The notes under the pieces: generated by a model | Told to the model about the DNA's origin: nothing | The model's input: the letters and a program-made list of their open reading frames with translations, nothing else | Database searches by the model: none | Made by a program: the position numbers and the translations under genes | Assembly: GCA_009692265.1 (NCBI GenBank) | Contig: SHZM01000006.1 | Span: 3,080-67,079, forward strand | Origin: Gammaproteobacteria bacterium | GTDB taxonomy: Bacteria; Pseudomonadota; Gammaproteobacteria; Ga0077536 | Reading direction: 5' to 3' | Length of the DNA stretch: 64,000 bases | Part shown: piece by piece, positions 16,872 to 45,783 of the stretch | Layout of the letters: each line of letters begins with the position of its first letter | Position numbering within the stretch: position 1 is the stretch's first letter

Positions 16872-17468
16872 GTGGAAATCCTAGTCCCCGGTTACGCAGG
16901 GCGCGCGGTCATGGTGCCGGTTGGCAGCACACTCAAGGTCGTTGATGTGGAAGGTTGCCAAATTGGTGATCTCTTCGTGCTCGCAGCATCCGATCTCGAT
17001 GAACGTCTGAGTCCTGGCGTGACGCGCTTGATCAATTTCACACCGTTCCCACACCTGGGAGAATCTTTCTACAGCAACCGTCGCCGATCCCTGTTAACTT
17101 TGCTGGAAGATACGTCGCCTGGTCTGCATGACATGACCTTTGCGCCGTGCGATGCCGAGCTCTATCGAACATTCAACGCCGGAGACGAGCATCCGAATTG
17201 CCGCGATAACTACTTTCGCGCAATGGCTGCCTTAGGTGTCGCTGCACACTCACACCCCGATCCGATCAATGTGTTTCAGAACACGCCCGTCAATCTCAAC
17301 GGCAGCTATACGATCGGCGCAGCCTTGTCGCGCCCCGGCGATTACATCGCGCTGCGCGCAAACATTGATTTGATCATTGCGTTAACCGCATGTTCGGTCG
17401 ATATCCCGTTTGAGGGTATACAACCAAACGGTGGTCGCTCGACATCGCTGCGTCTAGAAATCTCTTGA
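16872..17468 (+). CDS. DUF1989 / urea-carboxylase-associated family protein
   Basis: 198 aa. The pattern 'GCQIGDLF…FAPCDAELY…CRDNYFRAMAALG…IGAALSRPGDYIALRA' resembles DUF1989. Confidence 0.7.
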   Translation: MEILVPGYAGRAVMVPVGSTLKVVDVEGCQIGDLFVLAASDLDERLSPGVTRLINFTPFPHLGESFYSNRRRSLLTLLEDTSPGLHDMTFAPCDAELYRTFNAGDEHPNCRDNYFRAMAALGVAAHSHPDPINVFQNTPVNLNGSYTIGAALSRPGDYIALRANIDLIIALTACSVDIPFEGIQPNGGRSTSLRLEIS

Positions 17469-18803: not shown

Positions 18804-20132
18804 CGGGTCCTGTCAGGAATTATGTGTTTGTGAGCCATACTTTGATCCGGGGAGGATAGAGCATGGCAACGAAGAAAGCGTCGGCGTTCAGCGCCGAATC
18901 ATTGGATGAGCTGTTGGCTGATCAGGACCCTGGTACGGTCTTGAACTCGGATGGCTTTCTGGGAGATTTAAAGAAGGCCCTGGCAGAGCGGATGTTAAAT
19001 GCCGAGATGGATGTCCATCTTGGCCGTGAGTCTGAACGAGAGTCGGGTAACCATCGCAACGGGAGTAGTACCAAGACCGTACTGAGTGGTGACGGCGAAG
19101 TCGTATTGTCGATACCTCGCGACCGTCATGGTCGCTTTGATCCGGCGCTGATAGGCAAATATCAACGGCGGTTTCCAGGCTTCGACGAGAAGATTATCGC
19201 GTTGTATGGGCGGGGGATGAGCACGAGGGATATTCAGGCCCACGTGGGCGAACTATACGGCGTGACGATGTCACCGGATTTGGTGTGTGCGGTAACAGAA
19301 TCGGTGATGGAGGAAGTGCGCGCGTGGCAATCGAGACCCTTGGAAGCGACCTATGCGGTGGTCTTTTTTGACGCCTTGCGGGTGAAGATTCGGGACGAGG
19401 GAATGGTACGTAATAAAGCGGTGTATCTGGCGATTGGGATGCGCTGCTCGGGGCACAAGGAAGTCCTGGGGCTGTGGATTGAGCAGACGGAAGGCGCGAA
19501 ATTTTGGTTGCGCGTGATGAACGAGCTACGCGCACGCGGCCTGCAGGACATTTTGATTTCAGTGGTGGATGGGCTGAAGGGATTCCCGGAGGCGATCACC
19601 TCCGTGTACCCGGAGACCGTGGTCCAGACGTGCATCGTGCATCTCCTGCGTAATTCGCCCTATCTAGCTTCCTGGAAAGACCGCAAGGCGCTGACTGCGG
19701 CGCTGAAACCGATATACCAGGCCGATAGCCTGGAAGCCGCTGAGCGCGCGCTGACGGCCTTTGAAGCCGGTCCCTGGGGACAGCAGTTTCCGACGATTGC
19801 CGAAAGCTGGCGTCGTCACTGGGCGCACATCATTTCGTTTTTCGCGTTTGCGGCGCCGGTCCGCACCACCTTGTACACGACCAACGCGATTGAGAGTTTG
19901 CACAGCGGGGTGCGCAAAACGATTCGCAACAAAGGCCATTTCCCAAACGATGATTCCGCCACCAAACTCATCTGGTTGGCACTACGAAACATTACCGCGA
20001 AATGGGTCAATCCGCCTATCGCCTGGGCTCAAGCCAAGGCACAATTCGCGATACAATTCGGAGACCGATTCAGTGTCGCCGATTAATCAACAACGGCTCA
20101 CACACAAAATTTCTGACAAGCTCTCAGGCCCG
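18804..20132 (+). mobile_element. IS256-family insertion sequence (intact transposase CDS 18863..20086)
   Basis: 407 aa transposase with 'LDELLADQDP…DGFLGDLKKALAERMLNAEMDVHLG…VVDGLKGFPEAI…CIVHLLRNS', an IS256/mutator signature. Imperfect terminal inverted repeats at 18804-18836 ('cgggtcctgtcagg…gtgtttgtgagcc') and 20095-20132 ('ggctcacacacaaa…ctctcaggcccg'). Confidence 0.9.
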
Positions 20133-32066: not shown

Positions 32067-32084
32067 AGGAGTCCACCACGCGCG

Positions 32085-32263
32085 GCGTTGTTTTTCTCGG
32101 TAGTCGAAAAATCGATTTGAAGGAGTTCCGGGATCCAACGCCAGGTCCGGGCGAAGTTGTGCTTGCGATCAATGCCTCCGGCGTGTGTGGCAGCGACCTT
32201 AAATTTTACCGGGGACGTAGACTCGGGATACTCACCCAATCGTCACTTAGAAATTATGGGTAA
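32085..32263 (+). pseudogene. Zinc-dependent alcohol dehydrogenase (MDR) N-terminal fragment
   Basis: 'VVFLGSRKIDLKEFRDPTPGPGEVVLAINASGVCGSDLKFYRG' is the GroES-like N-terminus with the Zn Cys. It stops after ~60 aa. Confidence 0.4.
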
Positions 32264-32804
32264 TCCGGAACACCGCGATTTCCCGAGGCATTCTTGGGTG
32301 TCCCGGAATAATTCTGTCGTCGGCGACATTGGCTTGAATGGGTCGATTCGATGGGTGTCCCCGATTCGGCTCCGCGATCGAGCATCATCGGCACTGAAAC
32401 CACCGAGATGCCGAAGACCAGCGTTGCGAAGAAAGCGCCCACCGTGCAATAAGCGAACAGAAATTGTGGATGGTCGACCGAGAACAGGTGCGTCAGGAAA
32501 TATTTCATCGTCGGCATCGGCATGCCGGCGAATTGGTGGGGGGCGGGCGTCGGCGGATCGCGGTGTTCGGATTCTTCCATCGAGCGGATTCCCGTGACCG
32601 GTTCGCGTGGCGGTCGCAGGCGTAAGGCACAAGTACAGGTTTAGGTACAGGTCACTCAAGGCCTGCAATCAATCTTAATCCTAGCAGCGTGTCAGGCTTC
32701 GCGGGCAGGCACATCGCAGGCGCTTGGTCGATGTCAACAATTCGCACTACGCAGGCAATCCCGGCGGCGCATAGGCGCCGCTGGGATTAATTTTGGTGGG
32801 GGGA

Positions 32805-33020
32805 TCAGCCTTCCCGCTCAAGCGCCTTACGCAGAGTATCCTTGCTGCGCAGGCGCGCGAGGTCTTCCTCGAATTCCCGGCTCTCGGCCCGCAGCTGCAG
32901 GATGTGCCAAACTATCCAGAAGGCACCGACCACGATGACCATCAGCATTTCGGTGCCGACGAACGGGTACATGGGGCCGATATCCGTCATCGCCCCGGCA
33001 AAGGATTCGATTGTCGCCAT
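32805..33020 (-). CDS. Small (71 aa) single-TM membrane protein immediately downstream of amt
   Basis: ATG is 23 nt after the amt stop. The sequence is 'MATIESFAGAMTDIGPMYPFVGTEMLMVIVVGAFWIVWHILQLRAE…'. Confidence 0.4.
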   Translation of the reverse strand: MATIESFAGAMTDIGPMYPFVGTEMLMVIVVGAFWIVWHILQLRAESREFEEDLARLRSKDTLRKALEREG

Positions 33021-33042
33021 GTCTGTTGTCTCCTGTATGAGT

Positions 33043-34452
33043 TTAACCGCGAGCCGCCAGCAGATCGCCAGCTTCTGCGTGTACCGATTGCGTGACTTCC
33101 GCAGCGTCGAGTTCGCGCTGAATCTCGATCGAGACATCGAGTCCAGCGAGTTCGATTTCGCGCGGGATGCGAAGCAGACCGAAGGCATTCAACACCTTGG
33201 CTGCCACATAGCCGGGGAACACGCCCAGCACTGCAAACATGATCACGGCACCGATGAAATTGCCCCAGGGGGTGATCGCGGCGAAGCCCGCGGTCGGCGA
33301 TGAGGGATAGCCCCACAGCACAAACCCGGCGACCACCACCCCCAGGAAGCCTGTATAACCATGCACGGCGACCGCGCCAACGGCGCTGTCGAGCTTGAAG
33401 CGCCGTTCCATGTAATAGTGCAGCTTGTAGGAAATAACCGGCACGGTCGCGCCGATCAGGAAGGCCTGCAGCGGGTGATACAGATCATTACCTGCGGACG
33501 CGGCGATCACCCCGGCGAGACCACCCGAGTAGGTCCAGAAAGCATCGCCCTTCGCCACCGCGTGCATCGAAAGCATGCCGCCGCATAAGGCCGTGATGAA
33601 ATTGAACGTGATAGCTGACAGTGTGGTCGGTGCCAGATAGATATTGGTCGCCGAGAAAAACACGCCATCGCCGGCCTGTACATCAAACATTGGGATGTTG
33701 CACGCGGCGTAGAAACCCCAGAAGCCGGTGTAGATCAGGAAAAGCCCGATCGTCACCAACCATGGATTGTGCGGATTGATGTTGCGGGCTGTCCCGTCCG
33801 GCTTGAATTTGCCGAGGCGCGGTCCGAGCACCAGCAGCACGCCCAAGGTAAAGCCGCCGGCGATGGCATGCACCACCCCGGATGCGTACGCATCGTGGTA
33901 GCCAAGCTTGGCCACCATCCAGCCCGCCGGATGCCAACCCCAGGCCGCATCGATTATCCACAGCACCGAACCAATCAGCACGGCCAGGATCCAGAAGGCA
34001 CCCGAGCGGATCCGTTCGATGCAGTCGCCAGAGACGATGGAGGCGGTGGTCCAGGAGAACAGCAGGAACGCCGCGAAAAACACCCCGTTGAGGCGGGCCC
34101 ACAGCGCAGTATCGGCAGCCGTCACCGCGGCTGTCGCTGGCGCGCCGCCCATGTGAGTGCCCATCAATTCGCTCCACGGGACCGCGAAGGATGCCGGGAT
34201 GAGTCCACCTGTGATCCCGGGTCCGTTCGGGAGCGCCGAATAGATCCACCAGCCGAACAGATAGAACGTGATCCCCACCGTCGGGATCACCATGGTGTTC
34301 TTCATCAACGTATGCATGTGATTCTTGCGCCGCGAGGCGCCGACTTCATACATGCAAAAGCCAACGTGGATCAGAAACATGAAAACCACTGTCACCCAGT
34401 AGTAAAACTCGGTGAACAGTACGGTCAGTGCTGTGATGTCTTTATCCATCAT
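33043..34452 (-). CDS. amt: Ammonium transporter (Amt/MEP family)
   Basis: ~470 aa polytopic protein with Amt family features. Start 'ggagga-N5-ATGATGGAT' at 34452. It lies co-directionally downstream of DMFase-like cassette A. Confidence 0.9.
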   Translation of the reverse strand: MMDKDITALTVLFTEFYYWVTVVFMFLIHVGFCMYEVGASRRKNHMHTLMKNTMVIPTVGITFYLFGWWIYSALPNGPGITGGLIPASFAVPWSELMGTHMGGAPATAAVTAADTALWARLNGVFFAAFLLFSWTTASIVSGDCIERIRSGAFWILAVLIGSVLWIIDAAWGWHPAGWMVAKLGYHDAYASGVVHAIAGGFTLGVLLVLGPRLGKFKPDGTARNINPHNPWLVTIGLFLIYTGFWGFYAACNIPMFDVQAGDGVFFSATNIYLAPTTLSAITFNFITALCGGMLSMHAVAKGDAFWTYSGGLAGVIAASAGNDLYHPLQAFLIGATVPVISYKLHYYMERRFKLDSAVGAVAVHGYTGFLGVVVAGFVLWGYPSSPTAGFAAITPWGNFIGAVIMFAVLGVFPGYVAAKVLNAFGLLRIPREIELAGLDVSIEIQRELDAAEVTQSVHAEAGDLLAARG

Positions 34453-34624
34453 ATCCTCCTCGGTTGTTTTACTCAGGCACGCGCCTGTCCCCCATACGCC
34501 GGCGACACCTTGGGTCGCCGACACCTGTTTAGACCAGCGATCCTGCGACTCCATTCCAGCCGGCGCGCTGCGCGTGACCGACCCCGGGTTTTCCCTGGGT
34601 GGCGGCTGCGGTCAGGTGCGCCGC

Positions 34625-35020
34625 TCAGAGACTGCGGACAGGCATCCTTTCCCCCCGCGTGCGCCGCAAGCGCGTGGCGGCGCGGCTGGCGGCGGCTGGC
34701 GTGTCGAACGTCAGTGCTTCAAATATGATCAACGGGCGCGCGCGATCCGCGCTTAATTGGCCGACGCACCAGCGCCGCTCCGTTTCGGTACAGACCACCA
34801 CATACGCGCCTGGTAGCGGGCCGAAGTGCCGGTTATTGAGCGTAAAAAGACACTCCGCGAGTTGATTGAGTTTGTCCGGATCGAGCGTGCCGAGTAATGC
34901 AGACTCGAGTTTATTCGGGGTGCCCGCGAGCGCGGGCATCACATGTTTGCCGCGCGGTGGCGCGAGAGGCCGCCCCGGGTTCTGCTGCGGCGCCGGTTTT
35001 CGCGCGCGACGCGGACTCAC
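34625..35020 (-). CDS. Protein of unknown function (~131 aa), DMFase-cassette-associated, copy A
   Basis: GTG start overlaps the large-subunit stop (GTGA at 35017-35020). It is a paralog of 42499..42927 (shared 'GP.PG.YVvV…R..VGQL.AD.A.P…FE.L.F'). Confidence 0.6.
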   Translation of the reverse strand: MSPRRARKPAPQQNPGRPLAPPRGKHVMPALAGTPNKLESALLGTLDPDKLNQLAECLFTLNNRHFGPLPGAYVVVCTETERRWCVGQLSADRARPLIIFEALTFDTPAAASRAATRLRRTRGERMPVRSL

Positions 35021-37401
35021 GGCAATGGTCCTTTCTTGAGAAAGCCCTTGATCACGTTCTTCATCAGGCGCGACACGTTGTTGTCGTAATTGTGGTGGGA
35101 CAGTGCGCCACACCAGGCCAGCGAGCCGGGCGCGAAGACCGCCCCGTCATTCGGCGTCTTGTAGTAGATCATGTCCGCCCGAATCATCGGATTCTCATCG
35201 CCGCCGCCGTAAAAACCGCGCACCGAGAAGTGGACTTCCTCGTTGACCTGCAGCATGAGATCCGTATGGCCTTCGGAGCGCGCGAGAAGGAACGCGTGGT
35301 GCGGCGTGCCGAATTCCAGATCGTAGCGGTCGATCTCCAGGCCCGCGGCGCCGCCGCCGACGAGGCCGAAGTCACCGATCACCTCGTCCTGACCGATCCC
35401 TTGAAACATCCACGCGCATTCGGGCCGCAGGCTATCCGCTTCGCGCCGATAGTAAGTGGAAACATCGAAACCATAACCGGTGAACGTGAGTCCGCAGACT
35501 TTGCTCGGGATGCGACCGCGCGCCCGCCACATTCCGCCGTACTTGCCGTCAAATGCATTGTTGTATTCGCCCGGATTCGCGGTCCACGCGCGGGTACCGG
35601 CCTCGCCTTTGCGTACTTCGATGATATTGCTGTTGTCCGGATGGTACTGGCTGCACCAGTAAAAGCCGTTGGCACCGAGGTACATCCAGCGCCCGCCGCT
35701 GGCCTGGTAAGCCTCGTAGGCATTGAGCATGCGTTCGGAAGAGTACTCCGGATGGCTGCCCGTCAAGACCACCTGATAACGGGACAACAGCCCGAGTCCC
35801 TCGCGATCGAGATCCTCATCGGTATGCACATCGAACTCGAAATTCATCTGTTCGAGCCAATCGGTCAAATGCAGATCCGCGTTAAACTGCCATAACGACG
35901 GCGACAACCAGTGCCGATACTTCGGGCGCATGTTCAAGATCGGTCGCAGGCGCGAGCTGTAGCACACCCCACTGCCGTCCGAATGGCAGGAATAAGTGGA
36001 CAGACCGTATTCGCGATGCTCATTCAGATAGAGATCCGAAGCGTTCATGATCGGCACGCGCCCGGCCAGTAGCTGCGCGACGACGGAATTGGTGGCAAGG
36101 TTGTCGTTCGAATAGGCCATGTAGCTGTTGGTCGGCACGATGAACGCAATCTTCGCGGTCGCCGTCCCGCGCGGCGGCCGCACGAAGAACGGAATGTAGT
36201 CTTCGGTTTCCGGCGAATCCTTGCCACCGATCCGCAGGCGAGCCGCATAGGCCCCACTCTTCAAGGTGGTGGGCAAGGTATAGGTAAAATCCACTGCCCA
36301 CCGCGCATCGTCGAGGTCATCGTCATGGAAATGGATCGCGCCATACTCATGCGGAATGTGGTGATAGACGATATCGTCGCCGCTCCAGTTATAGCCGGTC
36401 ATGCCGCGGACCGGGAGATTGATGGCGAACCCATGCAACTGATTCGGTGAGATATCCACGATCTGGCACGAGGCGATATTAGTCGTGATGTTGGCGTGAA
36501 AATCCCAGGCACCCACCACGGCAATGCGCAGCTCCGCAGCGGCTCCCGCGAAGCCGCGCGCGAGCGCATCGATTTCTGCTTTCGAAAGTGCTCTATTCGA
36601 AATCCTGGGACGGTCGATTTTCCCGTTATAACACCAGACCTGTTCCGGCAGGGACACCGCGGAGATGGCCTCCTTGTAGTGACCCCCTTGAATGCTGCGT
36701 CCCGAGTCCGTCTCCGCGGTCGCCGCGGCGAACAGGACCGGCGCGTCATTCTTGGCCGGACCATGGGCGCTCTTGGTCTTTACCACTGCGCTAGTCTCGT
36801 GCGCAGGGTGCAGCAGCGCCATGCCGAGTCCGCCATTCGTCGATGACACGATCGGTTCCTGATACAGCACCACCTGCCCGGTGTCCGCGTCGTAGCTGGC
36901 CGCCACCAGGTACCATACCTTACGACGCAATGGTTTCCCGCTCGTGAGCGTGGTGAGCTTGCCGCGCGTCCCGCCGATCATCACAGTAAGACAACCCGCT
37001 TCATCAACAAACAGACCATAGCCGGACTTCCGGCCGACATCCCACTTGGTCACTACGCCCTGCATGCCTTTGTCATGGCAGTAGCCATGCGGTCCGGGGC
37101 CTGGGGTGGTGGGGAAAATAAAGGCCTGCACGGTGAAGCTTGCACAGTCCAGGCGTGAGTCGGCCGGTATCACTACATACGAGCCACCGTGAATCTTCTG
37201 CGGTCGCCCTTGGTAGCGTTGATTGCAGGGCGCTTTGATTTCTTTTTCCTTGAAACCAGGTCCTTCGGGATTCGTATCCCCATGGATTACACGCACGATC
37301 TGGACGTCGTAGCGCTCTCCCTTCTCGGCATTCACATAGAATTTGATCGTCTCGCCAGGACATGCGGAATACTTATCGCTGTAGCCGGTGATCCGAAGCA
37401 T
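35017..37401 (-). CDS. N,N-dimethylformamidase large (beta) subunit family protein, copy A
   Basis: 794 aa. It has the LamG-like central region and the conserved C-terminal catalytic region '…GGRWMYLGANGFYWCSQYHPD…YGGMWRARGR…' typical of DmfA2-family proteins. Preceded by a 'gagga' SD. Confidence 0.85.
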   Translation of the reverse strand: MLRITGYSDKYSACPGETIKFYVNAEKGERYDVQIVRVIHGDTNPEGPGFKEKEIKAPCNQRYQGRPQKIHGGSYVVIPADSRLDCASFTVQAFIFPTTPGPGPHGYCHDKGMQGVVTKWDVGRKSGYGLFVDEAGCLTVMIGGTRGKLTTLTSGKPLRRKVWYLVAASYDADTGQVVLYQEPIVSSTNGGLGMALLHPAHETSAVVKTKSAHGPAKNDAPVLFAAATAETDSGRSIQGGHYKEAISAVSLPEQVWCYNGKIDRPRISNRALSKAEIDALARGFAGAAAELRIAVVGAWDFHANITTNIASCQIVDISPNQLHGFAINLPVRGMTGYNWSGDDIVYHHIPHEYGAIHFHDDDLDDARWAVDFTYTLPTTLKSGAYAARLRIGGKDSPETEDYIPFFVRPPRGTATAKIAFIVPTNSYMAYSNDNLATNSVVAQLLAGRVPIMNASDLYLNEHREYGLSTYSCHSDGSGVCYSSRLRPILNMRPKYRHWLSPSLWQFNADLHLTDWLEQMNFEFDVHTDEDLDREGLGLLSRYQVVLTGSHPEYSSERMLNAYEAYQASGGRWMYLGANGFYWCSQYHPDNSNIIEVRKGEAGTRAWTANPGEYNNAFDGKYGGMWRARGRIPSKVCGLTFTGYGFDVSTYYRREADSLRPECAWMFQGIGQDEVIGDFGLVGGGAAGLEIDRYDLEFGTPHHAFLLARSEGHTDLMLQVNEEVHFSVRGFYGGGDENPMIRADMIYYKTPNDGAVFAPGSLAWCGALSHHNYDNNVSRLMKNVIKGFLKKGPLP

Positions 37402-37472
37402 GGGGTTGTCCTCATTTATGTACCGTCGACGCCGCGCGCCAGAAATGTTCGGTTCGGTGCCAACGCGGCCGT

Positions 37473-37922
37473 TCAGCGCACTTTATGCCCGTAACTGGCC
37501 AGGAGTTCGTGCACCCGTTTGACGAAAATCGCGTGCTCACAGGAATCTTCGGATGGATAGGAGTCGGCGAAGATCTTGACCGGCTTGCCGCGCACGCCAG
37601 TACACATGCCAATGCGGTAATCGCGATGCGCGGCGACACAGATTCGCACGTACTTGCCGGCCATCGGCGCACGCCGGAGTTTGTCGATCACATGCGCAAG
37701 TTCTTCACTGTGCTGCACACCGGCCTTGCCACCTTTGCCCGGCAAGCCGATCGGGTTCTCGCAATGTTCAGCGAGCAGGCGCTCGCGCGTCGTGCGGTCG
37801 GTCAGCAGCGGGAGGACATGGGTGCGGGTAATGAAGTCATCCGTACTGGTATAACCCTGGTTGGTTTGGACGCCGGTCGGTTTGGTCGCCATCGTTCCTC
37901 CCAGGCTTTTTGACTCGTGCAA
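37473..37922 (-). CDS. Putative DMFase small (alpha) subunit-like protein, copy A
   Basis: ~140-149 aa gene directly upstream of the large subunit. It is a paralog of 45352..45783 (shared 'IDKLR…', 'EHAIFVKR'). The size matches the ~15 kDa DMFase alpha subunit. The assignment is by context. Confidence 0.55.
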   Translation of the reverse strand: MHESKSLGGTMATKPTGVQTNQGYTSTDDFITRTHVLPLLTDRTTRERLLAEHCENPIGLPGKGGKAGVQHSEELAHVIDKLRRAPMAGKYVRICVAAHRDYRIGMCTGVRGKPVKIFADSYPSEDSCEHAIFVKRVHELLASYGHKVR

Positions 37923-37993
37923 TACTTATAACACTGGCGTCCGGCAAAATGAAGGTTAGTTCTTTCAATGCGCAGAAACTTTCTCTACTCTCA
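37893..37993. promoter_or_regulatory. Divergent intergenic/promoter region between DMFase-like cassette A (minus) and the GS-like operon (plus)
   Basis: ~100 bp, locally AT-richer ('cttataacactggcgtccggcaaaatgaaggttagttctttcaatgcgcagaaactttctctactctcaatgcaacgt'). It is flanked by divergent start codons. Confidence 0.45.
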
Positions 37994-39364
37994 ATGCAAC
38001 GTATGAATACGACCCCGCTAAACTGGTCTGCCGCTTCGGGTACCGCGCTTAGCGACATTTTGGAGCGCGAGCGCATCGAGTTTGTGCACGCGGGGATCTT
38101 CGATACTGAAGGAGTGTTCCGCGAAAAGCGGTTGCCGGTGGCGCTGGCGCGCCGGTACCTGGCGGAGGGTTGGTCTTTCATCGACGCGCTGCCGTACTGG
38201 GGGCCCAACGACACGGTACGCGCGGACCGCGCTTATCGCAGCGAAGCCTGCCAGCTTGATGTCGCGAGTCTGCGCCCTTACCCGTTCGAACCTCACGCCG
38301 CGTTGCTGGTGGCGGACTACACCGGCGACAGCGCCGCGTTGTCGCCGCGGGCACTGCTCGCGGCCCAGATCGCGCGCGCGCACCAACTTGGCTTCGAACC
38401 CCTTGGCGCAAGCGAGTTCGAGTTCATCATTCTCGACGAAACGCCCGCTACGCTGAGCGCCAAGAATTTCGATCAGCTGCAGACGCTGGCACAGGAGAAT
38501 TGTTGCTGGTCGGGGCTATATCCGGCCGCGGGCGCAGAATTCCTGCGCGATTACGATCACTGTCTGCGGGCCGGGGATATTCCCCTGCATCATCTGTGCT
38601 CGGAACTGGGCCCGGGGTGCCTGGAAGCCGCGCTGCCCGTGCGCCAACTGGCGACGGCGGCGGACGATGCCGCACTTTTCAAGCTGTTCACCAAGGCGTT
38701 CTGCATTCAACGCAGTCTCACCGCTTCTTTCATGGCCCAGCTCTCGGATACGCATCCCGGACTGGGCGGGCATCCCAGCTTGTCGCTGCGCACGCGCACG
38801 ACTGACGTCGCCGCGTTCCATGCGGCCGACGATCCGCGCGGAATCTCGATCGTGTGCCGGCAATTTATCGCGGGCATCCTGCAAGCCTTGCCCGAACTCA
38901 TGCCGATGTTCGCCAGTACGGTGAATGCTTATCGCCGGTATGTGCCGGGCAATTGGGCGCCACGCACCGCGACCTGGGGGCTCGGGAATTACACCTGTGG
39001 TTTACGGGTGGTGGCTGGCGCGCCGGACGACTGTCGGATTGAATTTCGCTTGCCCGGCGCGGATACCAATCCGCACCTGGCCTTCGCGCTGATGCTCGGC
39101 GCCGGGTTGCGGGGAATCGAGCAAAATCTGCAACCCCCGCCTGAAACGACCGACATCGGCCGCGAGTTCGTGCATCCGGCGATCGGTCCGTTACCGCGCT
39201 CGCTGCTCGAAGCCGCCGAACGCATGCAGCGTAGTACGCTGGCGGCTGATTTGTTTGGGGCCGAGTTCGTGACCCATTTCACCCAGAGCTGTATTCAGGA
39301 AGACATCACAATGCGCCGGCACGTCGCGGCATTTGAACGCAAGCGTTACCTTCATCACGTATGA
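37994..39364 (+). CDS. Glutamine synthetase-like protein 1 (divergent GlnA-family paralog)
   Basis: It has the GS catalytic-domain layout ('GASEFEFII', 'NAYRRYVPGNWAPRTATWGLGNYTCGLRV'). The canonical HHE.APGQ.E region is replaced by 'HHLCSELGPGCLE'. Confidence 0.75.
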   Translation: MQRMNTTPLNWSAASGTALSDILERERIEFVHAGIFDTEGVFREKRLPVALARRYLAEGWSFIDALPYWGPNDTVRADRAYRSEACQLDVASLRPYPFEPHAALLVADYTGDSAALSPRALLAAQIARAHQLGFEPLGASEFEFIILDETPATLSAKNFDQLQTLAQENCCWSGLYPAAGAEFLRDYDHCLRAGDIPLHHLCSELGPGCLEAALPVRQLATAADDAALFKLFTKAFCIQRSLTASFMAQLSDTHPGLGGHPSLSLRTRTTDVAAFHAADDPRGISIVCRQFIAGILQALPELMPMFASTVNAYRRYVPGNWAPRTATWGLGNYTCGLRVVAGAPDDCRIEFRLPGADTNPHLAFALMLGAGLRGIEQNLQPPPETTDIGREFVHPAIGPLPRSLLEAAERMQRSTLAADLFGAEFVTHFTQSCIQEDITMRRHVAAFERKRYLHHV

Positions 39365-39405
39365 GCGTGGCGCTTTAAACCATCAGCACCCGGAGGAGCC
39401 TTGCT

Positions 39406-40872
39406 ATGACCGCATTGGAGAATTACGTCAAAGACACTGCGCGCGCGGAAGGCGTCAAGAAAGTCCGCGCGATGATCAAAGCGCTGGGCGTCGAGTACAT
39501 CTACTTCCAGTTCGTGTCGGTCACCGGGCGAATCGTCGGTAAGGGTGCGCCTGCCGATCACTGGGAGCGAATCGCCACTAAGGGCTTCCAGCTGGTCTAT
39601 GGTTCGACCGCCAATCTGTTCATCAGTCGCAAAGGGCGTTACCTCGGCTACGGGCCGGAGGCCCATGAGCTGGTCGGCATCGCAGATCCGGAAACGTTTG
39701 TGCAGTTGCCGTGGGAACCGCGCGTGGCGCGGGTGTTCTGCACCTTATTCCGCAATCGCGAAGAGCTGGTCGACCCCGGCGGCTATCTGAGCTCGGATTG
39801 CCGCGGCAATCTCACACGCGCCCATACCGCGTTCGAAAAAAAGCACGGCCTGCGGCTGCGGCTCGGCACCGAACCCGAAATGATGTGGTTGAAAAAGGGT
39901 GCCGACGGCAAACCCGCTGGCGGCGTCACCAAGCCTTATTGTTACCACATCGATCAGTTCGAAGAACTGCGACCGATCACGCTCAAGGTGACCGAGTACT
40001 GTCGCAAGATGGGTATTGACTGCATTCAGGGTGATCACGAAGACGCCCCCGGACAGCTCGAACTGAACTGGACGTACGACGATGTCGAGCGGACGTCCGA
40101 TCGGCTGACCACCTACCGTCAGATCTGCACGCAGGTGGCTCGCGAGTTCAACGTCATCGCGTGCTTCATGACCAAGCCTTTCATGAAAGTCTCGGCGAAC
40201 GGCTGTCACCATAATTTCTCGCTGTGGAAAGGCGGCAAGGACCAGGTGACTACCTTCGATGGCCTGTCGAAGTTCGGCATGTCCGAGGTGTTCACCTACG
40301 TCACGGGTGGCCAGAACAAATTCGATCCCGAAGGCAAGGATCTCCGCATGCCCGGGCCGATCGGCCAATGGGCCGCCGGCGGCATCGTTAAACACCTGCC
40401 AGCGCTGACTGCGCTCGGGGCGTCCACGGTGAACTCCTACCGGCGCCTGCTCGACCAGGGCTACTGGGCGCCCGTCTACAACAATTGGGGCTATCAGAAT
40501 CGGACCTGTGCGCTGCGCGTGTCCGCACCAGGGCGTTTCGAGTATCGTGCCGTCGATTCGATGGTCAATCCCTATTTGTTGAATGCAGCGTTGCTGGCGG
40601 TCATGGATGAAGGCATCAGCCAAAAGCTGGATCCCGGTCCGCTGGAGCAGCGCAATATCTACGAACTCGAACTCGCCGGGAAAAAAGTGGTGAAGCTGCC
40701 CACGAACCTCGGCATGGCGCTGGATGCGATGGAGGCCGATCCCTTGGTGCGCTCGGCGCTTCCGGGCGAGATGTGGGATGTGTTCATCGACTACAAACGT
40801 GATGAATGGGACAAATTTCTGGCGACGGTCACAGCCTGGGACCACGACACTTACATGGACTATCTGCCCTAG
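39406..40872 (+). CDS. Glutamine synthetase-like protein 2 (gamma-glutamyl-amine ligase type, GmaS/PuuA/IpuC-like)
   Basis: 'GDHEDAPGQLELNW', 'NSYRRLLDQGYWAPVYNNWGYQNRTCALRV' and 'EPEMMW' are canonical GS catalytic motifs. 488 aa. Confidence 0.85.
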   Translation: MTALENYVKDTARAEGVKKVRAMIKALGVEYIYFQFVSVTGRIVGKGAPADHWERIATKGFQLVYGSTANLFISRKGRYLGYGPEAHELVGIADPETFVQLPWEPRVARVFCTLFRNREELVDPGGYLSSDCRGNLTRAHTAFEKKHGLRLRLGTEPEMMWLKKGADGKPAGGVTKPYCYHIDQFEELRPITLKVTEYCRKMGIDCIQGDHEDAPGQLELNWTYDDVERTSDRLTTYRQICTQVAREFNVIACFMTKPFMKVSANGCHHNFSLWKGGKDQVTTFDGLSKFGMSEVFTYVTGGQNKFDPEGKDLRMPGPIGQWAAGGIVKHLPALTALGASTVNSYRRLLDQGYWAPVYNNWGYQNRTCALRVSAPGRFEYRAVDSMVNPYLLNAALLAVMDEGISQKLDPGPLEQRNIYELELAGKKVVKLPTNLGMALDAMEADPLVRSALPGEMWDVFIDYKRDEWDKFLATVTAWDHDTYMDYLP

Positions 40873-40887
40873 CCCGGAGCAAACATC

Positions 40888-41772
40888 ATGCGGGACTTCA
40901 GCCTTAGCGACGGACAGGTTACTGACTTCGAACGGGATGGCTTCATCACCGTCGATCGCATCATCGATGACGACGAAGTGGCACTCCTGCGTGCGCGCTA
41001 TGACGAGTTGTTCAAAGGTCACTGGGAAACCGGCCTGGTGCCCGACGAAGTAAACTGGCTGGAAGGACGCGATCCCCCCGATCACACCCGTCAAATCTGC
41101 AATGGCTGGAAATCCGATCGGTTTGTGGCGAGCGTCATCCTGCAGGAATCGATCGGCCGGGCCTGCGCTACGCTCGGCCGTTGGCCCGGGACCCGCATCA
41201 GCCAGGACAACATTCTGTGGAAGCCGCCAGGCGGCAAACCGTTAGGGTTCCATCAAGATTCTGCCTACGAACAATGGACGAACCTGCCGGACTGGGTGAG
41301 CTGCTGGATTGCGCTCGATGACACCAGCGCCGAAGGTGGCACGGTTGAGTATGTGCGGGGATCGCACCGCTGGGGCCAGTCCGGCATGATCGAGCAGTTT
41401 CATGCGCCGCAGAACCCGGTCAAAGACCTCGAAAAAGCCGCCGCTGCGGCGGGGGTTACGCAGATCGAGCGGGTGCCGATCGTCGTCAAAGCCGGCGGCG
41501 GCGCGTTTCATGGCGGCTGGACCTGGCACGGCTCGGACGTCAACCGCTGCGAGGTCCCGCGCCGTTCGATCGTGGCCCATTGCATGTCCTCCGAAACCCG
41601 CTTTCATCCGACCTATGTCGGCTATATCTACAGCCGGTACAAACGTTTCGGCGATGACACCATGGATGAAGCCTTTTTCCCAATTCTGTGGCGCCAGGAT
41701 GGCTACCGCTCACCGTTCATTGCACCCTACGCCGCACGGCACATTACCTGGGGCGAAGCGCTGCCGGCGTGA
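40888..41772 (+). CDS. Phytanoyl-CoA dioxygenase (PhyH) family Fe(II)/2-oxoglutarate dioxygenase
   Basis: 'WKPPGGKPLGFHQDSAYEQW' (HxD) and 'GGAFHGGWTWHGS' (distal His) form the PhyH fold. The stop overlaps the next gene's GTG. Confidence 0.85.
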   Translation: MRDFSLSDGQVTDFERDGFITVDRIIDDDEVALLRARYDELFKGHWETGLVPDEVNWLEGRDPPDHTRQICNGWKSDRFVASVILQESIGRACATLGRWPGTRISQDNILWKPPGGKPLGFHQDSAYEQWTNLPDWVSCWIALDDTSAEGGTVEYVRGSHRWGQSGMIEQFHAPQNPVKDLEKAAAAAGVTQIERVPIVVKAGGGAFHGGWTWHGSDVNRCEVPRRSIVAHCMSSETRFHPTYVGYIYSRYKRFGDDTMDEAFFPILWRQDGYRSPFIAPYAARHITWGEALPA

Positions 41773-42482
41773 GGCGCCGGCTCGGCCTGCTGGCCTGCGA
41801 CAGCATCTGGGAACCCCTGCGTTCCCGTTTTGGCGATTACGCCGAGATGTACACCGCGCTGCTCCAGGCGGCCGGTGCCGACTTCGAACTCAAGGTTTTT
41901 GCGGTTCATCGAGGCGTGCTGCCGGCGCATCCGAGGGACTGCGATGCGTGGCTGATCTCCGGCTCGCGCGCCGGGGTGTATGACGCCCAACCCTGGATCG
42001 CGACCTTGCAGAATTTCGCACGTGCGGCGCATGCGATCGAGGTCCCCCAGGTCGGGATCTGTTTCGGTCATCAGTTGCTGGCACAGGCTCTCGGTGGCCG
42101 CGTCGAACGCGCGGCCACCGGCTGGGGTCTCGGCAATCTTGAGGTCGAACTGCGCGGCGAGTCGGCGTACCCGGCACCGACGTCCGGTCCGCTCCGGTTG
42201 TTCATGGCGCATCAAGATCAGGTTGTGACCCTGCCACCCGACGCGCAGTGGCTGGCCGCGGCGGCGCATTGCCGCCACGCTGCGTTCGCGCTGGGTGAGC
42301 AGGTGCTGGGCGTCCAGGCGCATCCCGAGTTCACGGCTGACTTCATGCGGGAGATGACCCTCGAAGCGACGTTCGAAATCCCGCCCGCCGTGCGCGCCGC
42401 GGCGCTCAGCAGTTTTGCTAAGCCGGTCGACAGCGCCGTTATCGGGCGCTGGATCGCCACTTTTCTGGGGCTGCTCAGCTGA
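41769..42482 (+). CDS. Class I glutamine amidotransferase-like protein (gamma-glutamyl-amide hydrolase type, PuuD/IpuF-like)
   Basis: 'VGICFGHQLLAQALGG' holds the catalytic Cys and 'VQAHPEF' the His. GTG start gives a GTGA overlap with PhyH. Confidence 0.75.
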   Translation: MRRRLGLLACDSIWEPLRSRFGDYAEMYTALLQAAGADFELKVFAVHRGVLPAHPRDCDAWLISGSRAGVYDAQPWIATLQNFARAAHAIEVPQVGICFGHQLLAQALGGRVERAATGWGLGNLEVELRGESAYPAPTSGPLRLFMAHQDQVVTLPPDAQWLAAAAHCRHAAFALGEQVLGVQAHPEFTADFMREMTLEATFEIPPAVRAAALSSFAKPVDSAVIGRWIATFLGLLS

Positions 42483-42498: not shown

Positions 42499-42927
42499 TT
42501 AGCGGCAGCTGAGCTGCGCCGCCGCGCGGAGTTCTGTCGCCTTGGCGCGCGCCTTCGCTTCGCTCGCGAACACCAGATCCTCGAACAACTGCACCGGCGC
42601 GGCCGGATCCGCACACAGTTGCCCGACCGCATAACGCCCGGATGCCACTGCGACAATCACATAAAAGCCGCGCACCGGGCCGGGTCGCGCACCGTTGAGG
42701 CGATACAGCACTTTGGCAAGATCGGCGAAGTGGCTGTCATCTTCGACCACCGCCTCGACGCGTGTCGGCGGCGCATCGGAGCGCACCCAGCGATGCGGCA
42801 TTTCTCCGGCGTCGCTGGTGAGCGGTAGTGCTTGCTCGCCGCGATAGGCCGGATGCAGCCACCAGGTCTCATCGCGTTTCAGCGGGACTTCGGCGGCCGC
42901 TTTGACTTTCGAGCGGCGGGGGTTCAC
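42499..42927 (-). CDS. Protein of unknown function (142 aa), DMFase-cassette-associated, copy B
   Basis: ATG overlaps the large-subunit stop (ATGA). Paralog of 34625..35020. Confidence 0.6.
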   Translation of the reverse strand: MNPRRSKVKAAAEVPLKRDETWWLHPAYRGEQALPLTSDAGEMPHRWVRSDAPPTRVEAVVEDDSHFADLAKVLYRLNGARPGPVRGFYVIVAVASGRYAVGQLCADPAAPVQLFEDLVFASEAKARAKATELRAAAQLSCR

Positions 42928-45368
42928 GGCAGAGGACCGTTCTTCAGGAAGCCATCAAGCGTATTGCGCATCAACCGCGACACGTTGTTGTCGTAGCGAT
43001 TGTGCGACAGCGAGCCGCACCAGGCCATCGAGCCGACCGAAAACACCGCGCCGTCATTCGGGGTCTTGTAGTAGACGATGTCCGCACGGGTGCGCGGATT
43101 GTTGTCCCCCGTGCCGCCGGCGATATACCCGCGCGCGTTAAAAGTTGACTCTTCGGTGACCGAGACGAACATGTCGGAATGACCTTCTGAATTTGCGAGC
43201 AAATAGGCGCGATGCGGCGTGCCCAGTTCCAGATCGTAGCGATCGAGTTCGAGCCCGGCCGCGCCATCCCCGACCAGGCCGAAGTTCCCGATCGGCTCGT
43301 CACGCGCAATGCCTTTGAACATCCACTTGCATTCGGGCAGTTCGCTGTCCGGCGCCCGGCGGTAGTACGAGGAGTAAGTCAAGCCGAACGACGTGAACGT
43401 GACGCCGAGAATCTTGCTCATGACCCTGCCGCGTACCCGCCACAGGCCACCATGCTTGCCGTCGAACGCATTGCAGTATTCGCCGGGCGCGATGGTCCAG
43501 GCACGGGTCCCGTTGTCGCCTTTGCGCACTTCGACAATGTTCGGGTTCTCCGGGTGGGGCTGACAGATCCAGTAAAAGCCGTTCGCGGCGAGATACATGA
43601 AGCGGCCGCCGGCCTGCTGGTAATCGTGATACGCCTGCATCTGCTGCTCGGACACATACTCCGGATGATGGCCGGTCAGCACGATGCGGTACTGGTTCAA
43701 CAGCGCTACGCCTTCACGCTGCACGTCTTCGTCGGTCAGGATGTCCAAGTCGTAATTCATCTCGTGCAGCCAGTCGACCAGATGCAGATCCGCATTGAAC
43801 TGCCAGAGCGACGGCGACAACACATGCACGTATTTGGGACGCATATTCAGAATCGGGCGCAGCCTGGACGAAATATTCACGCCCCAGCCGTCGCGGTAGG
43901 ACGTATAAGTGCCAAGCCCGTAACCGCGCTCTTGGTTCAGCAGCAGATCACCCGGCTGCAGCAGCGGCACCTGGCCCGTCAGCAGTTGCGCGATCACGGA
44001 ATTCACGCTCAAGTTATCGTTCGCATAGGCGAGGTAGCTGTGCATCGCCATCACGAGCGCGATTTTCGCGGTCGGGCCGCTGGCCGGCGGGCGCACGAAG
44101 AACGGGACATAATCCTCGTACTCAGCGCTGGTGGAGCCATTCACACGCAAGCGCGCGGCATACACCCCGCTTTTGAGATTGGCCGGAACTTTGAACGTGA
44201 ACGACGGCGCCCAGCGCGCGTCGTCGACCGACTCATCGTGAAAATGAATCGCGCCATATTCTTGCGGGGCGTGACGGAAGCTCATGTAGTCGGAAGACCA
44301 GTTGCAGCCGGTGACCCCGCGCACCGGCAGATTGACGCCGACGCCGTGCAGATGGTTCGGGCCCGTATCCACGATGTGCGTCGAGGCCGCGTTATCCGCG
44401 ATGTTCGCGCTGAAATCCCAGGCCCCGACCACTGCGCCGCGCAGTTCGCCGGGGATGTTTTCACAACCGGCTGACGCCAGCAGCATTTCCACCTCGGCCG
44501 CGCTGAGCGCGCGATTCGCGAGCTTAGGGCGTTCGATCTTGCCGTTGTATTTCTGGGTGTGGACCGGGATCTCCCACGGCATCGGGAGATGCTTGAAGTG
44601 GCCACCATGCAGCGTGCGCCCGGAGTGGGTCTCCAGCGTGCTGGCTGCAACCAACAGCGGACAATCGCTCGTACGCGGGCCGGCGCTGCGGGTGCGATAA
44701 CACGCGCTCCCGGCGGTGTCGTCGAGCGGGTGCAGCATGCTGAGGCCATGGCCACCATTCGTGATCGTCACGAACGGGGTCTGCCACACGCGAATCTCGC
44801 CGCTTGCCGCATCAAACGTGGCCGCCACCTTGTACCAGACCTTGCGAAACAGCGGTTTGCGGGTCGCGTATTCTTCAACCTTGCCGCGGCCGCGCCCGAT
44901 GCGGAGCGCCAGTTCACCACTTTCGTTGATGAACAGGCCATAGCCGACGCCCGTGGACGTGTTGAATTTAGAGATAATCGCCTGCGCGCCCACCGCCACA
45001 CCCTCGGTATCGACCAGCGGCGTGGTGGGATAGACGTAGGCGCACAAAGTGAAACTCTGCACGTCGAGCCGTGCATCGTGCGGCACCATGACATAGCTGC
45101 CGGCATACACCGCCTGATGCTGACCGCGATAGCGGCGATTAGTAGCGCTGCGGACCAGTTTTTCCTTGAATCCCGGCCCCTCCGGGTTCGTATCTCCGTG
45201 AATCAACCGCACGATGTCGGCCTGATACGGTTCGTCGAACTCGCTGTGCACGTGGAAAGTGACTTCTTCGCCCGGGCGGACCGAACACCGATCGGTGTAG
45301 CCGGTCACGCGCAGCATCATTGGTTGGGTGTTTGCCATGCGGATCAGCCTTTCAGGATTCGATGCCAT
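42924..45368 (-). CDS. N,N-dimethylformamidase large (beta) subunit family protein, copy B
   Basis: ~800 aa and collinear with copy A throughout ('MLRVTGYTDRCSVRPGEE…', '…GGRFMYLAANGFYWICQPHPEN…'). The start is likely the internal ATG at 45338 or 45320. Confidence 0.85.
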   Translation of the reverse strand: MASNPERLIRMANTQPMMLRVTGYTDRCSVRPGEEVTFHVHSEFDEPYQADIVRLIHGDTNPEGPGFKEKLVRSATNRRYRGQHQAVYAGSYVMVPHDARLDVQSFTLCAYVYPTTPLVDTEGVAVGAQAIISKFNTSTGVGYGLFINESGELALRIGRGRGKVEEYATRKPLFRKVWYKVAATFDAASGEIRVWQTPFVTITNGGHGLSMLHPLDDTAGSACYRTRSAGPRTSDCPLLVAASTLETHSGRTLHGGHFKHLPMPWEIPVHTQKYNGKIERPKLANRALSAAEVEMLLASAGCENIPGELRGAVVGAWDFSANIADNAASTHIVDTGPNHLHGVGVNLPVRGVTGCNWSSDYMSFRHAPQEYGAIHFHDESVDDARWAPSFTFKVPANLKSGVYAARLRVNGSTSAEYEDYVPFFVRPPASGPTAKIALVMAMHSYLAYANDNLSVNSVIAQLLTGQVPLLQPGDLLLNQERGYGLGTYTSYRDGWGVNISSRLRPILNMRPKYVHVLSPSLWQFNADLHLVDWLHEMNYDLDILTDEDVQREGVALLNQYRIVLTGHHPEYVSEQQMQAYHDYQQAGGRFMYLAANGFYWICQPHPENPNIVEVRKGDNGTRAWTIAPGEYCNAFDGKHGGLWRVRGRVMSKILGVTFTSFGLTYSSYYRRAPDSELPECKWMFKGIARDEPIGNFGLVGDGAAGLELDRYDLELGTPHRAYLLANSEGHSDMFVSVTEESTFNARGYIAGGTGDNNPRTRADIVYYKTPNDGAVFSVGSMAWCGSLSHNRYDNNVSRLMRNTLDGFLKNGPLP

Positions 45369-45783
45369 ATTGGTCGAGCAACGCCTTGAGGCGTTTCAAA
45401 AAAATCGCGTGTTCGGCGTCCTCCCGCGAGCGATAGCGTTCCTTGGTGATCTTCACCACGCCGCCACGTCGCCCCGGCAGGATCCCGATCGCGTATTCCT
45501 GCCATGGCACGGTTTCGACAATGGTGTGCTTGCCGGCCTGGGGCGTCATCCGCAACTTGTCGATCAGATGTTTCAGTTCCGGGCTGTGATTGGGGGGTTT
45601 AACGCCCGGCTGTGCCGCCGCGCCGCGTGGATGCGTCCGATGTTCGGCGATGATGCGCGCGCGACTCGCCGGATCCCGCAGGTGCGGCAGGATGTACATT
45701 CGGTTGTCGTAGTCGTCGACTGCGGTGAATCCGTAGTCACGGGCCAACGCAGTGGTCGGACCTGGATGACGTCTGGTGGCCAT
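45352..45783 (-). CDS. Putative DMFase small (alpha) subunit-like protein, copy B
   Basis: 143 aa. Paralog of 37473..37922. It lies directly upstream of large subunit B. Confidence 0.55.
   Translation of the reverse strand: MATRRHPGPTTALARDYGFTAVDDYDNRMYILPHLRDPASRARIIAEHRTHPRGAAAQPGVKPPNHSPELKHLIDKLRMTPQAGKHTIVETVPWQEYAIGILPGRRGGVVKITKERYRSREDAEHAIFLKRLKALLDQYGIES

Follow-up and report, generated by a model that had tools for sequence, protein, structure and literature searches.

A divergent Amt-family channel and a conserved single-pass membrane protein encoded as a two-gene module beside a dimethylformamidase-like amidase cassette

In the present study, we analysed a stretch of 64,000 nucleotides (nt) from the gammaproteobacterial contig SHZM01000006.1 (assembly GCA_009692265.1), called the window throughout, with respect to a gene for a divergent Amt-family channel (amt) and the open reading frame (ORF) of 71 amino acids (aa) that follows it downstream of a dimethylformamidase (DMFase)-like amidase cassette. 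From the comparison with related loci, amt and the 71-aa ORF are judged to be one conserved two-gene module, and the pair probably forms a two-part uptake channel for methylated amines. The wider proposal, namely a specialised Amt channel with a dedicated single-pass subunit for methylammonium and dimethylammonium that is co-expressed with an amine-releasing amidase, is put forward with moderate confidence. It was built on direct observations, namely the gene order, the residue patterns, the conserved pairing and the genomic associations.

When one genome per species was scanned, 210 relatives of the Amt were obtained, of which the best 80 were fetched as loci (designated by L numbers). A homolog of the 71-aa ORF was present on the same strand 3' of the amt stop codon in 79 of the 80 loci, and the remaining contig ended 60 nt past amt. 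The spacing between amt and the small ORF was -1 to 55 nt in 76 loci, with a median of 25 nt. Further metagenomic contigs contained the small ORF directly 3' of an Amt of this subfamily in six out of six cases (four distant members and two close ones). According to the record titles, the pair was carried by Gamma-, Beta- and Alphaproteobacteria, Thermodesulfobacteriota, Thermoleophilia, Acidobacteriota, Gemmatimonadota and Latescibacterota; cultured strains of Roseovarius, Ruegeria, Dongia and Taklimakanibacter also contained it. When 1.84 billion representative proteins were searched with a profile of the 71-aa family, 248 members (50% clustering) were obtained, and among the 150 matches listed of these 248, all were 39–157 aa long and none was fused to Amt.

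The residues Y18, P19, G22, E24 and E46 of the 71-aa family were 100% conserved, followed by G15 and Q42 (98%), W35 (96%), W38 (93%) and H39 (89%). The invariant motif of the family was YPFVG.E, which reads GP.YPFVG.E with the preceding positions. AlphaFold2 predicted one long helix for residues 20–70, with the highest confidence in the membrane segment (pLDDT 94 at residues 31–40). W35, W38/H39, Q42 and E46 share one face of this helix, and such a conserved polar face suggests that the protein packs against the transporter. The tail was charged, variable and about 30 residues long. The mean number of Lys and Arg was 0.13 in the N-terminal 25 residues versus 5.6 in the tail; therefore, the N-terminus is most likely periplasmic and the C-terminus cytoplasmic. 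Between the window and L003, the 71-aa ORFs differed at 13, 8 and 36 codon positions of the first, second and third kind, respectively, and this excess at the third position indicates purifying selection.

The 71-aa protein matched no family of Pfam or NCBIfam, and its homologs were labelled hypothetical in the records of the public databases. One homolog (P0013) carried the JGI name 'preprotein translocase subunit YajC', which had no support in Pfam or NCBIfam and is probably an annotation error. In the literature, we found no description of the small protein, nor of this Amt subfamily as a methylamine carrier. The short length, the lack of an assigned family and a match to DUF4381 that was rejected as below threshold (17.1 bits against a cutoff of 27.2) would fit a chance ORF or a mis-called leader without function. 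Against this stand the conservation across phyla with invariant residues, the third-codon bias, an AGGAG ribosome-binding site 9 nt upstream of the ORF and the 248 representatives. The comparative data already refute a chance ORF, which we regard as barely credible, and they indicate that the 71-aa ORF is a real gene. The original prediction had proposed it as a possible Amt-associated peptide and had named conservation downstream of amt homologs as the check, with a lack of conservation in any related genome as the refuting outcome. The homologs were found there, which clearly rules that outcome out, and their constant position after amt in the fetched loci and the six further places, the invariant motif and the predominance of third-position changes all speak for the proposed association.

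The Amt matched PF00909 with an E-value of 1.3e-49 and 169.4 bits (cutoff 23.2) over profile positions 6–392 of 399. Its score was below the cutoff for NCBIfam TIGR00836 amt (164.6 bits against 343.3) and for the marine subtype TIGR03644 (144 against 514). The identity to E. coli AmtB was about 25%, and the closest solved structure was 6eu6 (E 6.6e-24), which we take to be the sensor-type Amt of Kuenenia. In AmtB, the residues S219, W148 and F107 form the ammonium recruitment site. When 77 sequences of the subfamily were aligned to AmtB, the twin histidines H168 and H318, the phenylalanine gate F107 and F215, W148 and D160 (AmtB numbering) were found to be invariant, as were the changes S219C, N216Y, G218A, F161A, A162Y, W212F and T273S relative to AmtB (77 of 77). 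The AmtB motif GWFGFNAGS was changed to GFWGFYAAC in the Amt of the window, the motif blocks being checked by eye and with a regular expression. The canonical serine of the recruitment site was thus replaced by cysteine in the subfamily, and also in the sister clade described below. The recruitment site was changed and the conduction residues were kept, which suggests that the conduction path was retained and the entry site remodelled. By these sequence features the Amt is assigned to a distinct subfamily.

As the original prediction had noted, glnK was missing from the locus: tblastn with E. coli GlnK gave 0 matches in the 64 kb window, and matches were found in only 2 of the 80 loci. In L008, the GlnK match belonged to a separate canonical glnK-amtB pair beside the Amt pair, which suggests that the two have different jobs. 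Amt proteins rank among the best-studied channels and, to our knowledge, the only established bacterial partner of Amt is the soluble PII protein GlnK. Both systems share the fold family and a channel gene paired with a small second gene. However, the partner described here is a membrane protein encoded downstream of the channel gene, whereas GlnK is soluble and is encoded upstream, and the context here is amine catabolism instead of nitrogen-regulation genes. A 2023 review of transporter modulators lists only GlnK for Amt and no small membrane protein (PMC10710835).

The 71-aa protein has the features of the small transporter modulators, namely fewer than about 100 residues, one transmembrane helix and a gene that adjoins a transporter gene. 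AcrZ with AcrB, KdpF with KdpABC, and MgtS, MgtR and MgtU with MgtA/B are likewise short single-helix proteins encoded beside the transporter, with a conserved helix face. However, none of them is related in sequence to the 71-aa protein, which is larger and more elaborate than most small modulators, with its invariant extracytoplasmic motif and its charged tail.

A second Amt clade was found that was 42–47% identical to the Amt of the window. Its loci were L018 (12302–13790), L025, L026, L059, L060 and L068 of the fetched set, and L089 (10515–12089). A small single-pass ORF was present about 10–18 nt after the sister Amt in all seven of these loci; the ORF of L060 was truncated and lacked the N-terminal motif. 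The full-length sister partners contained 54–70 aa, with N-terminal SPIESWDGAG or a variant and a TLKTENHHE-like C-terminal tail. The N-terminal ESW.G resembled the consensus of the 71-aa family. In Roseovarius faecimaris, two pairs lay in tandem, and the small ORF of the second pair encoded 56 aa. Two related channels, each with a related small partner, would look like a pattern of co-evolving subunits.

For the analysis of the neighbours, all ORFs of the 80 loci were clustered, and a glutamine synthetase (GS)-like gene was counted when it lay within 8 kb. The commonest neighbours of the pair were a 489-aa GS-like ligase, MgsA-like (GATase_6/7), MgsB-like (GXGXG) and MgsC-like (Glu_synthase) proteins, FolD and FAD oxidoreductases, and these genes were mostly co-directional with amt. 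Of the 80 loci, 41 contained a GS-like gene, about 30 contained MgsABC-like genes and 17 contained FolD; among the 48 loci whose flanks were complete, a GS-like gene was present in 31. L038 (Methylophagaceae) also contained DmmDABC, and in L078 (Ruegeria) a TmoXVW-like ABC system and a Tdm-like DUF1989/GCV_T protein were found directly upstream. Most relatives of the pair sit inside islands like the known methylated-amine islands of Roseobacters, Methylocella and SAR11 (gmaS-mgsABC-mgdABCD, dmmDABC and tdm-tmoXVW). When gmaS adjacent to mgsABC was taken as the mark of an N-methylglutamate cluster, about 30 of the 80 loci qualified, and the window did not, as it contained only the GmaS-like GS. 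An 'amtB, ammonia transporter' appears in the legend of the methylated-amine cluster maps of Lidbury et al. (2017; PMC5520151). Neither that gene nor the small ORF was the subject of any study that we found in the literature.

Several observations were made beside these clusters. The Tdm-like protein of L078 has an N-terminal domain to which a DUF1989-like segment of the window (16914–17429) was 31% identical over 179 aa; this segment was the sole match in the window to the methylated-amine enzymes of the related loci. Three conserved proteins without Pfam assignment, of about 129, 165 and 155 aa, flanked the pair in GmaS/MgsABC-type clusters of L018 (7348–7737, 9885–10379 and 11526–11990) and about 12–22 other loci. 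None of these three proteins had a homolog in the window, and no homologs of the flanking clusters c6, c7 and c11, nor of the downstream ORFs of L081, were found there. The gammaproteobacterial locus L064 (877–17321) contained two sets of GS and MgsABC-like genes on either side of the pair, one with a GmaS of the canonical size of 435 aa and the other with the 489-aa type; this suggests that two pathways run in parallel, each for a different amine.

The minus strand from 32805 to 37892 was found to contain five successive ORFs encoding the small subunit, the large subunit, the third protein, Amt and the 71-aa protein, separated by 71 nt, a 4-nt overlap, 172 nt and 22 nt, respectively (Table 1). 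All five ORFs that the original prediction had listed in this order and direction were recovered at or near its coordinates. The gap between amt and the 71-aa ORF was short as described, at 22 nt instead of 23 nt. The amt ORF from 34452 was also present; translation probably starts at the second ATG, at 34449, because the spacing between the GAGGAGG Shine-Dalgarno sequence and the first ATG is just 2 nt, and because the homologs begin with MDKD or MDND.

The cassette upstream of amt is a DMFase-like amidase on the evidence of profiles and alignments, and hydrolysis of dimethylformamide (DMF) to dimethylamine and formate is its putative activity. The large subunit A matched PF20254 DMFA2_C (E 2.5e-94) and aligned over its full length to the Paracoccus DMFase 6lvb_A (E 8e-187). 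The DMFase residues named in PMC7686228 were all retained in it: Y399, Y440 and E521 as iron ligands, H519 and N547 as essential residues, and F693 in the pocket. The profile of the small subunit A and its orthologs matched the small subunit of the solved DMFase, 6lvb_B (E 6.6e-9). The L081 orthologs of both the small subunit A and the third protein carried PF26354 DMF_alpha, the latter ortholog being encoded in the complete chromosome OZ257136. The profile of the third protein, when searched against the solved structures with HMMER alone, gave only noise and did not match 6lvb_B. The comparison of the small-subunit and third-protein profiles by hhalign gave a probability of 92.8% (E 4e-7, 66 columns), and pairwise blastp gave E 1e-6. 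The hhalign result and the Pfam match of the ortholog mark the third protein as a distant paralog of the alpha subunit and not a new fold. The GTG start of its gene overlaps the TGA stop of the large-subunit gene (GTGA), an arrangement that points to translational coupling of the two.

The likeness to DmfA1/DmfA2 of Paracoccus and Methylobacterium (6LVB) lies in the operon of a small and a large subunit with the 2-Tyr-1-Glu iron site intact. The described dmf operons contain two genes and the LuxR-type activator DmfR (PMC4543880), whereas each cassette of the window contains a third gene, with amt and the small ORF lying downstream of cassette A. The third gene of both cassettes may encode an alternative or additional subunit. 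In cassette B, the large subunit matched PF20254 (E 8.4e-88), small B lay at 45352–45783 and third B at 42499–42927, with the same GTGA-type overlap. The DMFase family also includes N-acetyl-beta-phenylalanine acylase, and the second dmfA1A2 locus of P. aminophilus, which is 34–40% identical to the active one, has not been linked to DMF use (PMC4543880); therefore, the substrate of the cassette is not fixed by its sequence.

Promoter and terminator scans of the gap between the third gene and amt (34453–34624) found no terminator-like and no sigma-70-like site, and no terminator-like site was present between any of the five genes. The control of amt by NtrC and sigma-54 that had been suggested gained no support, as TGGCAC-N5-TTGCW was not matched in the gap even when 3 mismatches were allowed, and its window-wide count was below chance; the nearest look-alike, at 37918–37933, lacked the essential GG. 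The gap folded no better than its shuffled controls (z -0.82), and no riboswitch or other RNA family of Rfam was matched anywhere in the window. The sequence of the gap was conserved only in the near-identical L001, and the equivalent gap was 42 nt in L003/L081. After the small ORF, the hairpin at 32757–32788 (z -2.7) has its T-run on the plus-strand side and is likely the end of the transcription unit. Upstream, an extended -10-like sequence TGTTATAAG was found about 35 nt before the ATG of the small subunit A. The region 37893–37993 probably holds the promoters of both divergent units; the promoter scan found nothing in it at its thresholds. Because the gap showed no terminator-like or promoter-like site and the one strong hairpin lay past the small ORF, the simplest reading is that transcription reads through from the cassette promoter into amt, so that co-transcription of the five genes would be expected.

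The cassette adjoined the pair in L001, L003 and L004 as well. L001 showed 97–99% protein identity to most of the proteins of the window at the locus, and the five-gene order was shared by L001 and L003. L004 contained two tandem cassettes, followed by amt and the small ORF, with the ortholog of cassette B directly upstream of amt. The recurrence of the gene order in relatives indicates that the arrangement is beyond chance, and the comparison of the loci suggests that the GS-like/PhyH operon and the amt pair form the stable core, with the cassettes added between or beside them. The GS-like2 protein had the glutamate-methylamine ligase 9qur as its best solved match (E 4e-57) and was 63–68% identical to the ligase of the cluster type. 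For GS-like1, a start at 37994 was deduced by comparison with the ortholog of 456 aa in L081, whose equivalent divergent region measures 82 bp. The PhyH dioxygenase of the divergent operon (37994–42482) could, as pure inference, demethylate gamma-glutamyl-(di)methylamide and so replace MgsABC/Mgd.

In the proposed mechanism, the cytoplasmic amidase would free a methylated amine and formate, and the GmaS-like ligases would trap the amines as gamma-glutamyl amides. Amt and its partner would import or recapture methylammonium and dimethylammonium and would not serve general ammonium scavenging. The 71-aa protein would lie as a helix at the periphery of the Amt trimer, with the polar face of W35, W38/H39, Q42 and E46 against Amt and the GP.YPFVG.E motif at the periplasmic membrane surface, near the periplasmic vestibule. 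Its charged cytoplasmic tail would lie near the exit that is normally plugged by GlnK, whose place it could take in gating or stabilising the channel. The release of the amine, its uptake or recapture and its assimilation would thus be co-expressed in one cell. More tentatively, and with somewhat less confidence than even, we propose that the Cys-219-type Amt clade functions only when it forms a heteromer with a single-pass subunit that co-evolves with it and is drawn from at least two partner families (YPFVG.E and SPIESWDGAG), that this heteromer is the missing dedicated uptake of methylamine and dimethylamine in at least six phyla, and that the subunit sets selectivity or gating in place of GlnK.

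Several points weigh against the proposal of a dedicated methylated-amine channel that is co-expressed with the amidase. AmtB itself carries methylammonium, so a special methylamine channel is not strictly needed. The physical association of Amt with the 71-aa protein is deduced from co-occurrence and co-diversification, and the substrate preference from the gene neighbourhoods and a few residue changes; the direction of transport is likewise a deduction. About one third of the full-length loci had no recognisable methylated-amine gene within 8 kb, and no homolog of MgsA/B/C, Dmm, FolD or SoxA was found in the 64 kb window; the window differs from the known islands in lacking MgsABC, Dmm, Tdm and FolD and in having only two GS-like genes, a PhyH dioxygenase and an amidotransferase. 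The DMFase-like cassette adjoined the pair only in the window and 3 of the 80 loci. In L002, the pair had no cassette and an upstream region of its own, with amt divergent from GS-like1, GS-like2 and PhyH; this suggests that the pair stands as a module by itself, with methylated-amine catabolism as its general partner. On the minus-strand transcript, the hairpin after the small ORF has no U tract, and the 172-nt gap could hold a promoter of a type outside the models scanned.

The adjacency of the cassette might be incidental, the pair being its own transcription unit that is tied functionally only to the GS-like/PhyH operon, with the cassettes as mobile insertions. The divergent arrangement without a cassette in L002, the two tandem cassettes instead of one in L004 and the lack of conservation of the 172-nt gap outside L001 agree with such a history, which we nevertheless consider unlikely, since no terminator-like site was found in the gap, the gap was only 42 nt in L003, the cassette was co-directional with amt and immediately upstream wherever it was present at the locus, and its expected product fits the pathway. 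The tie of amt to the amidase cassette that had been claimed from the gene order is therefore plausible: the gap is free of terminator-like and promoter-like sites and shorter in L003, and the expected product, a methylated amine, fits the links of the Amt subfamily. The tie is lineage-specific, and the co-transcription behind it is deduced from the signals around the genes.

A plain-ammonium channel that vents excess or recaptures leaked NH3 from the catabolism of methylated amines or formamides, with the small protein as a GlnK-independent regulator of flux, would account for the retention of all AmtB conduction residues and for the label of ammonia transporter in the published maps (PMC5520151), and nitrogen-releasing catabolic islands would be a logical site for an ammonium valve. 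We judge this rather improbable, as the recruitment site for NH4+ was systematically altered (S219C, N216Y, F161A and A162Y being invariant), L008 retained a canonical glnK-amtB beside the pair, and in many loci the gene lay in co-directional runs with GmaS/MgsABC-like genes, whose substrate needs import. It is very unlikely that the Amt is a sensor (transceptor) whose signal is relayed by the small protein. The closest solved structures were Amts of 405–661 residues (6eu6, and 8qj3/8qpf, the extra length of the latter suggesting fused domains), but the similarity was weak (E 6.6e-24 and about 3e-15), neither protein had an output domain, the tail of the small protein was short and variable, and no regulator was found to adjoin the pair consistently in the 80 clustered loci. 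The specialised channel with its dedicated subunit is therefore retained as the preferred explanation.

Table 1. Features of the window around the amt pair, with positions in the window.
Feature	Position	Strand	Basis
Small (alpha) subunit A, DMFase-like	37473–37892	-	6lvb_B profile match; PF26354 in L081 ortholog
Large (beta) subunit A, DMFase-like, 794 aa	35017–37401	-	PF20254 DMFA2_C; full-length match to 6lvb_A
Third protein, 131 aa, divergent alpha-subunit paralog	34625–35020	-	PF26354 in L081 ortholog; hhalign; blastp
Gap between third gene and amt, 172 nt	34453–34624	-	Site scans, folding, comparison with relatives
Divergent Amt-family channel	33043–34452 (probable true start 34449)	-	PF00909
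71-aa single-pass membrane protein	32805–33020	-	Partner of Amt subfamily in relatives; single predicted transmembrane helix
GC-rich 14-bp hairpin, 16 nt past the 71-aa ORF	32757–32788		Hairpin scan and folding, z -2.7
Divergent intergenic region, small subunit A / GS-like operon	37893–37993		Probable promoters for both units
Divergent operon: GS-like1, GS-like2 (GmaS-like), PhyH-type dioxygenase, class-I amidotransferase	37994–42482	+	Pfam; synteny in L002, L003, L081
Cassette B: second set of small subunit, large subunit and third protein	42499–45783	-	PF20254 in large B

Some further observations were made on the surroundings of the locus. A Mutator-family transposase (PF00872, E 2e-120) was present at 18863–20086, about 13 kb from the locus, so that some mobile DNA lies nearby. 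A plasmid origin was rejected, as it had only one weak match of 72%, between part of the large subunit and a Parasedimentitalea plasmid, and the comparison of the non-coding sequences of L002, L003 and L004 with the window gave nothing usable for dating the insertion of the cassette. Past the hairpin, about 700 nt (32067–32756) contained no convincing gene; a 108-aa ORF on the minus strand (32254–32580) resembled a fragment of a membrane protein. In L003, the small ORF was followed by two unannotated proteins of 170 and 208 aa that had no homolog in the window. L001 and L002, the contigs most similar to the window, were deposited as metagenome-assembled genomes of 'Klebsiella pneumoniae' and 'uncultured Klebsiella sp.', labels that look wrong; a protein of the window is recorded from a Gammaproteobacteria metagenome-assembled genome (EXR86_02510), and the gene content was not enterobacterial.

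The Amt fold, the DMFase cassette and the methylated-amine islands are already known. The strictly conserved single-pass partner of an Amt clade, the second partner family in the sister clade and the Cys-type recruitment site appear to be undescribed. Methylamine and dimethylamine matter for nitrogen cycling in marine and fresh waters and for aerosol formation, and the pair, if the proposal is true, would be a concrete candidate for the bacterial uptake of both. The link to the cassette suggests that the DMFase-like enzymes of lake bacteria feed a methylated-amine pathway, and it hints at natural N-methylated formamides as substrates instead of an industrial solvent. A membrane-embedded partner as strictly conserved as the channel itself would, if true, add a new layer to the biology of Amt proteins.

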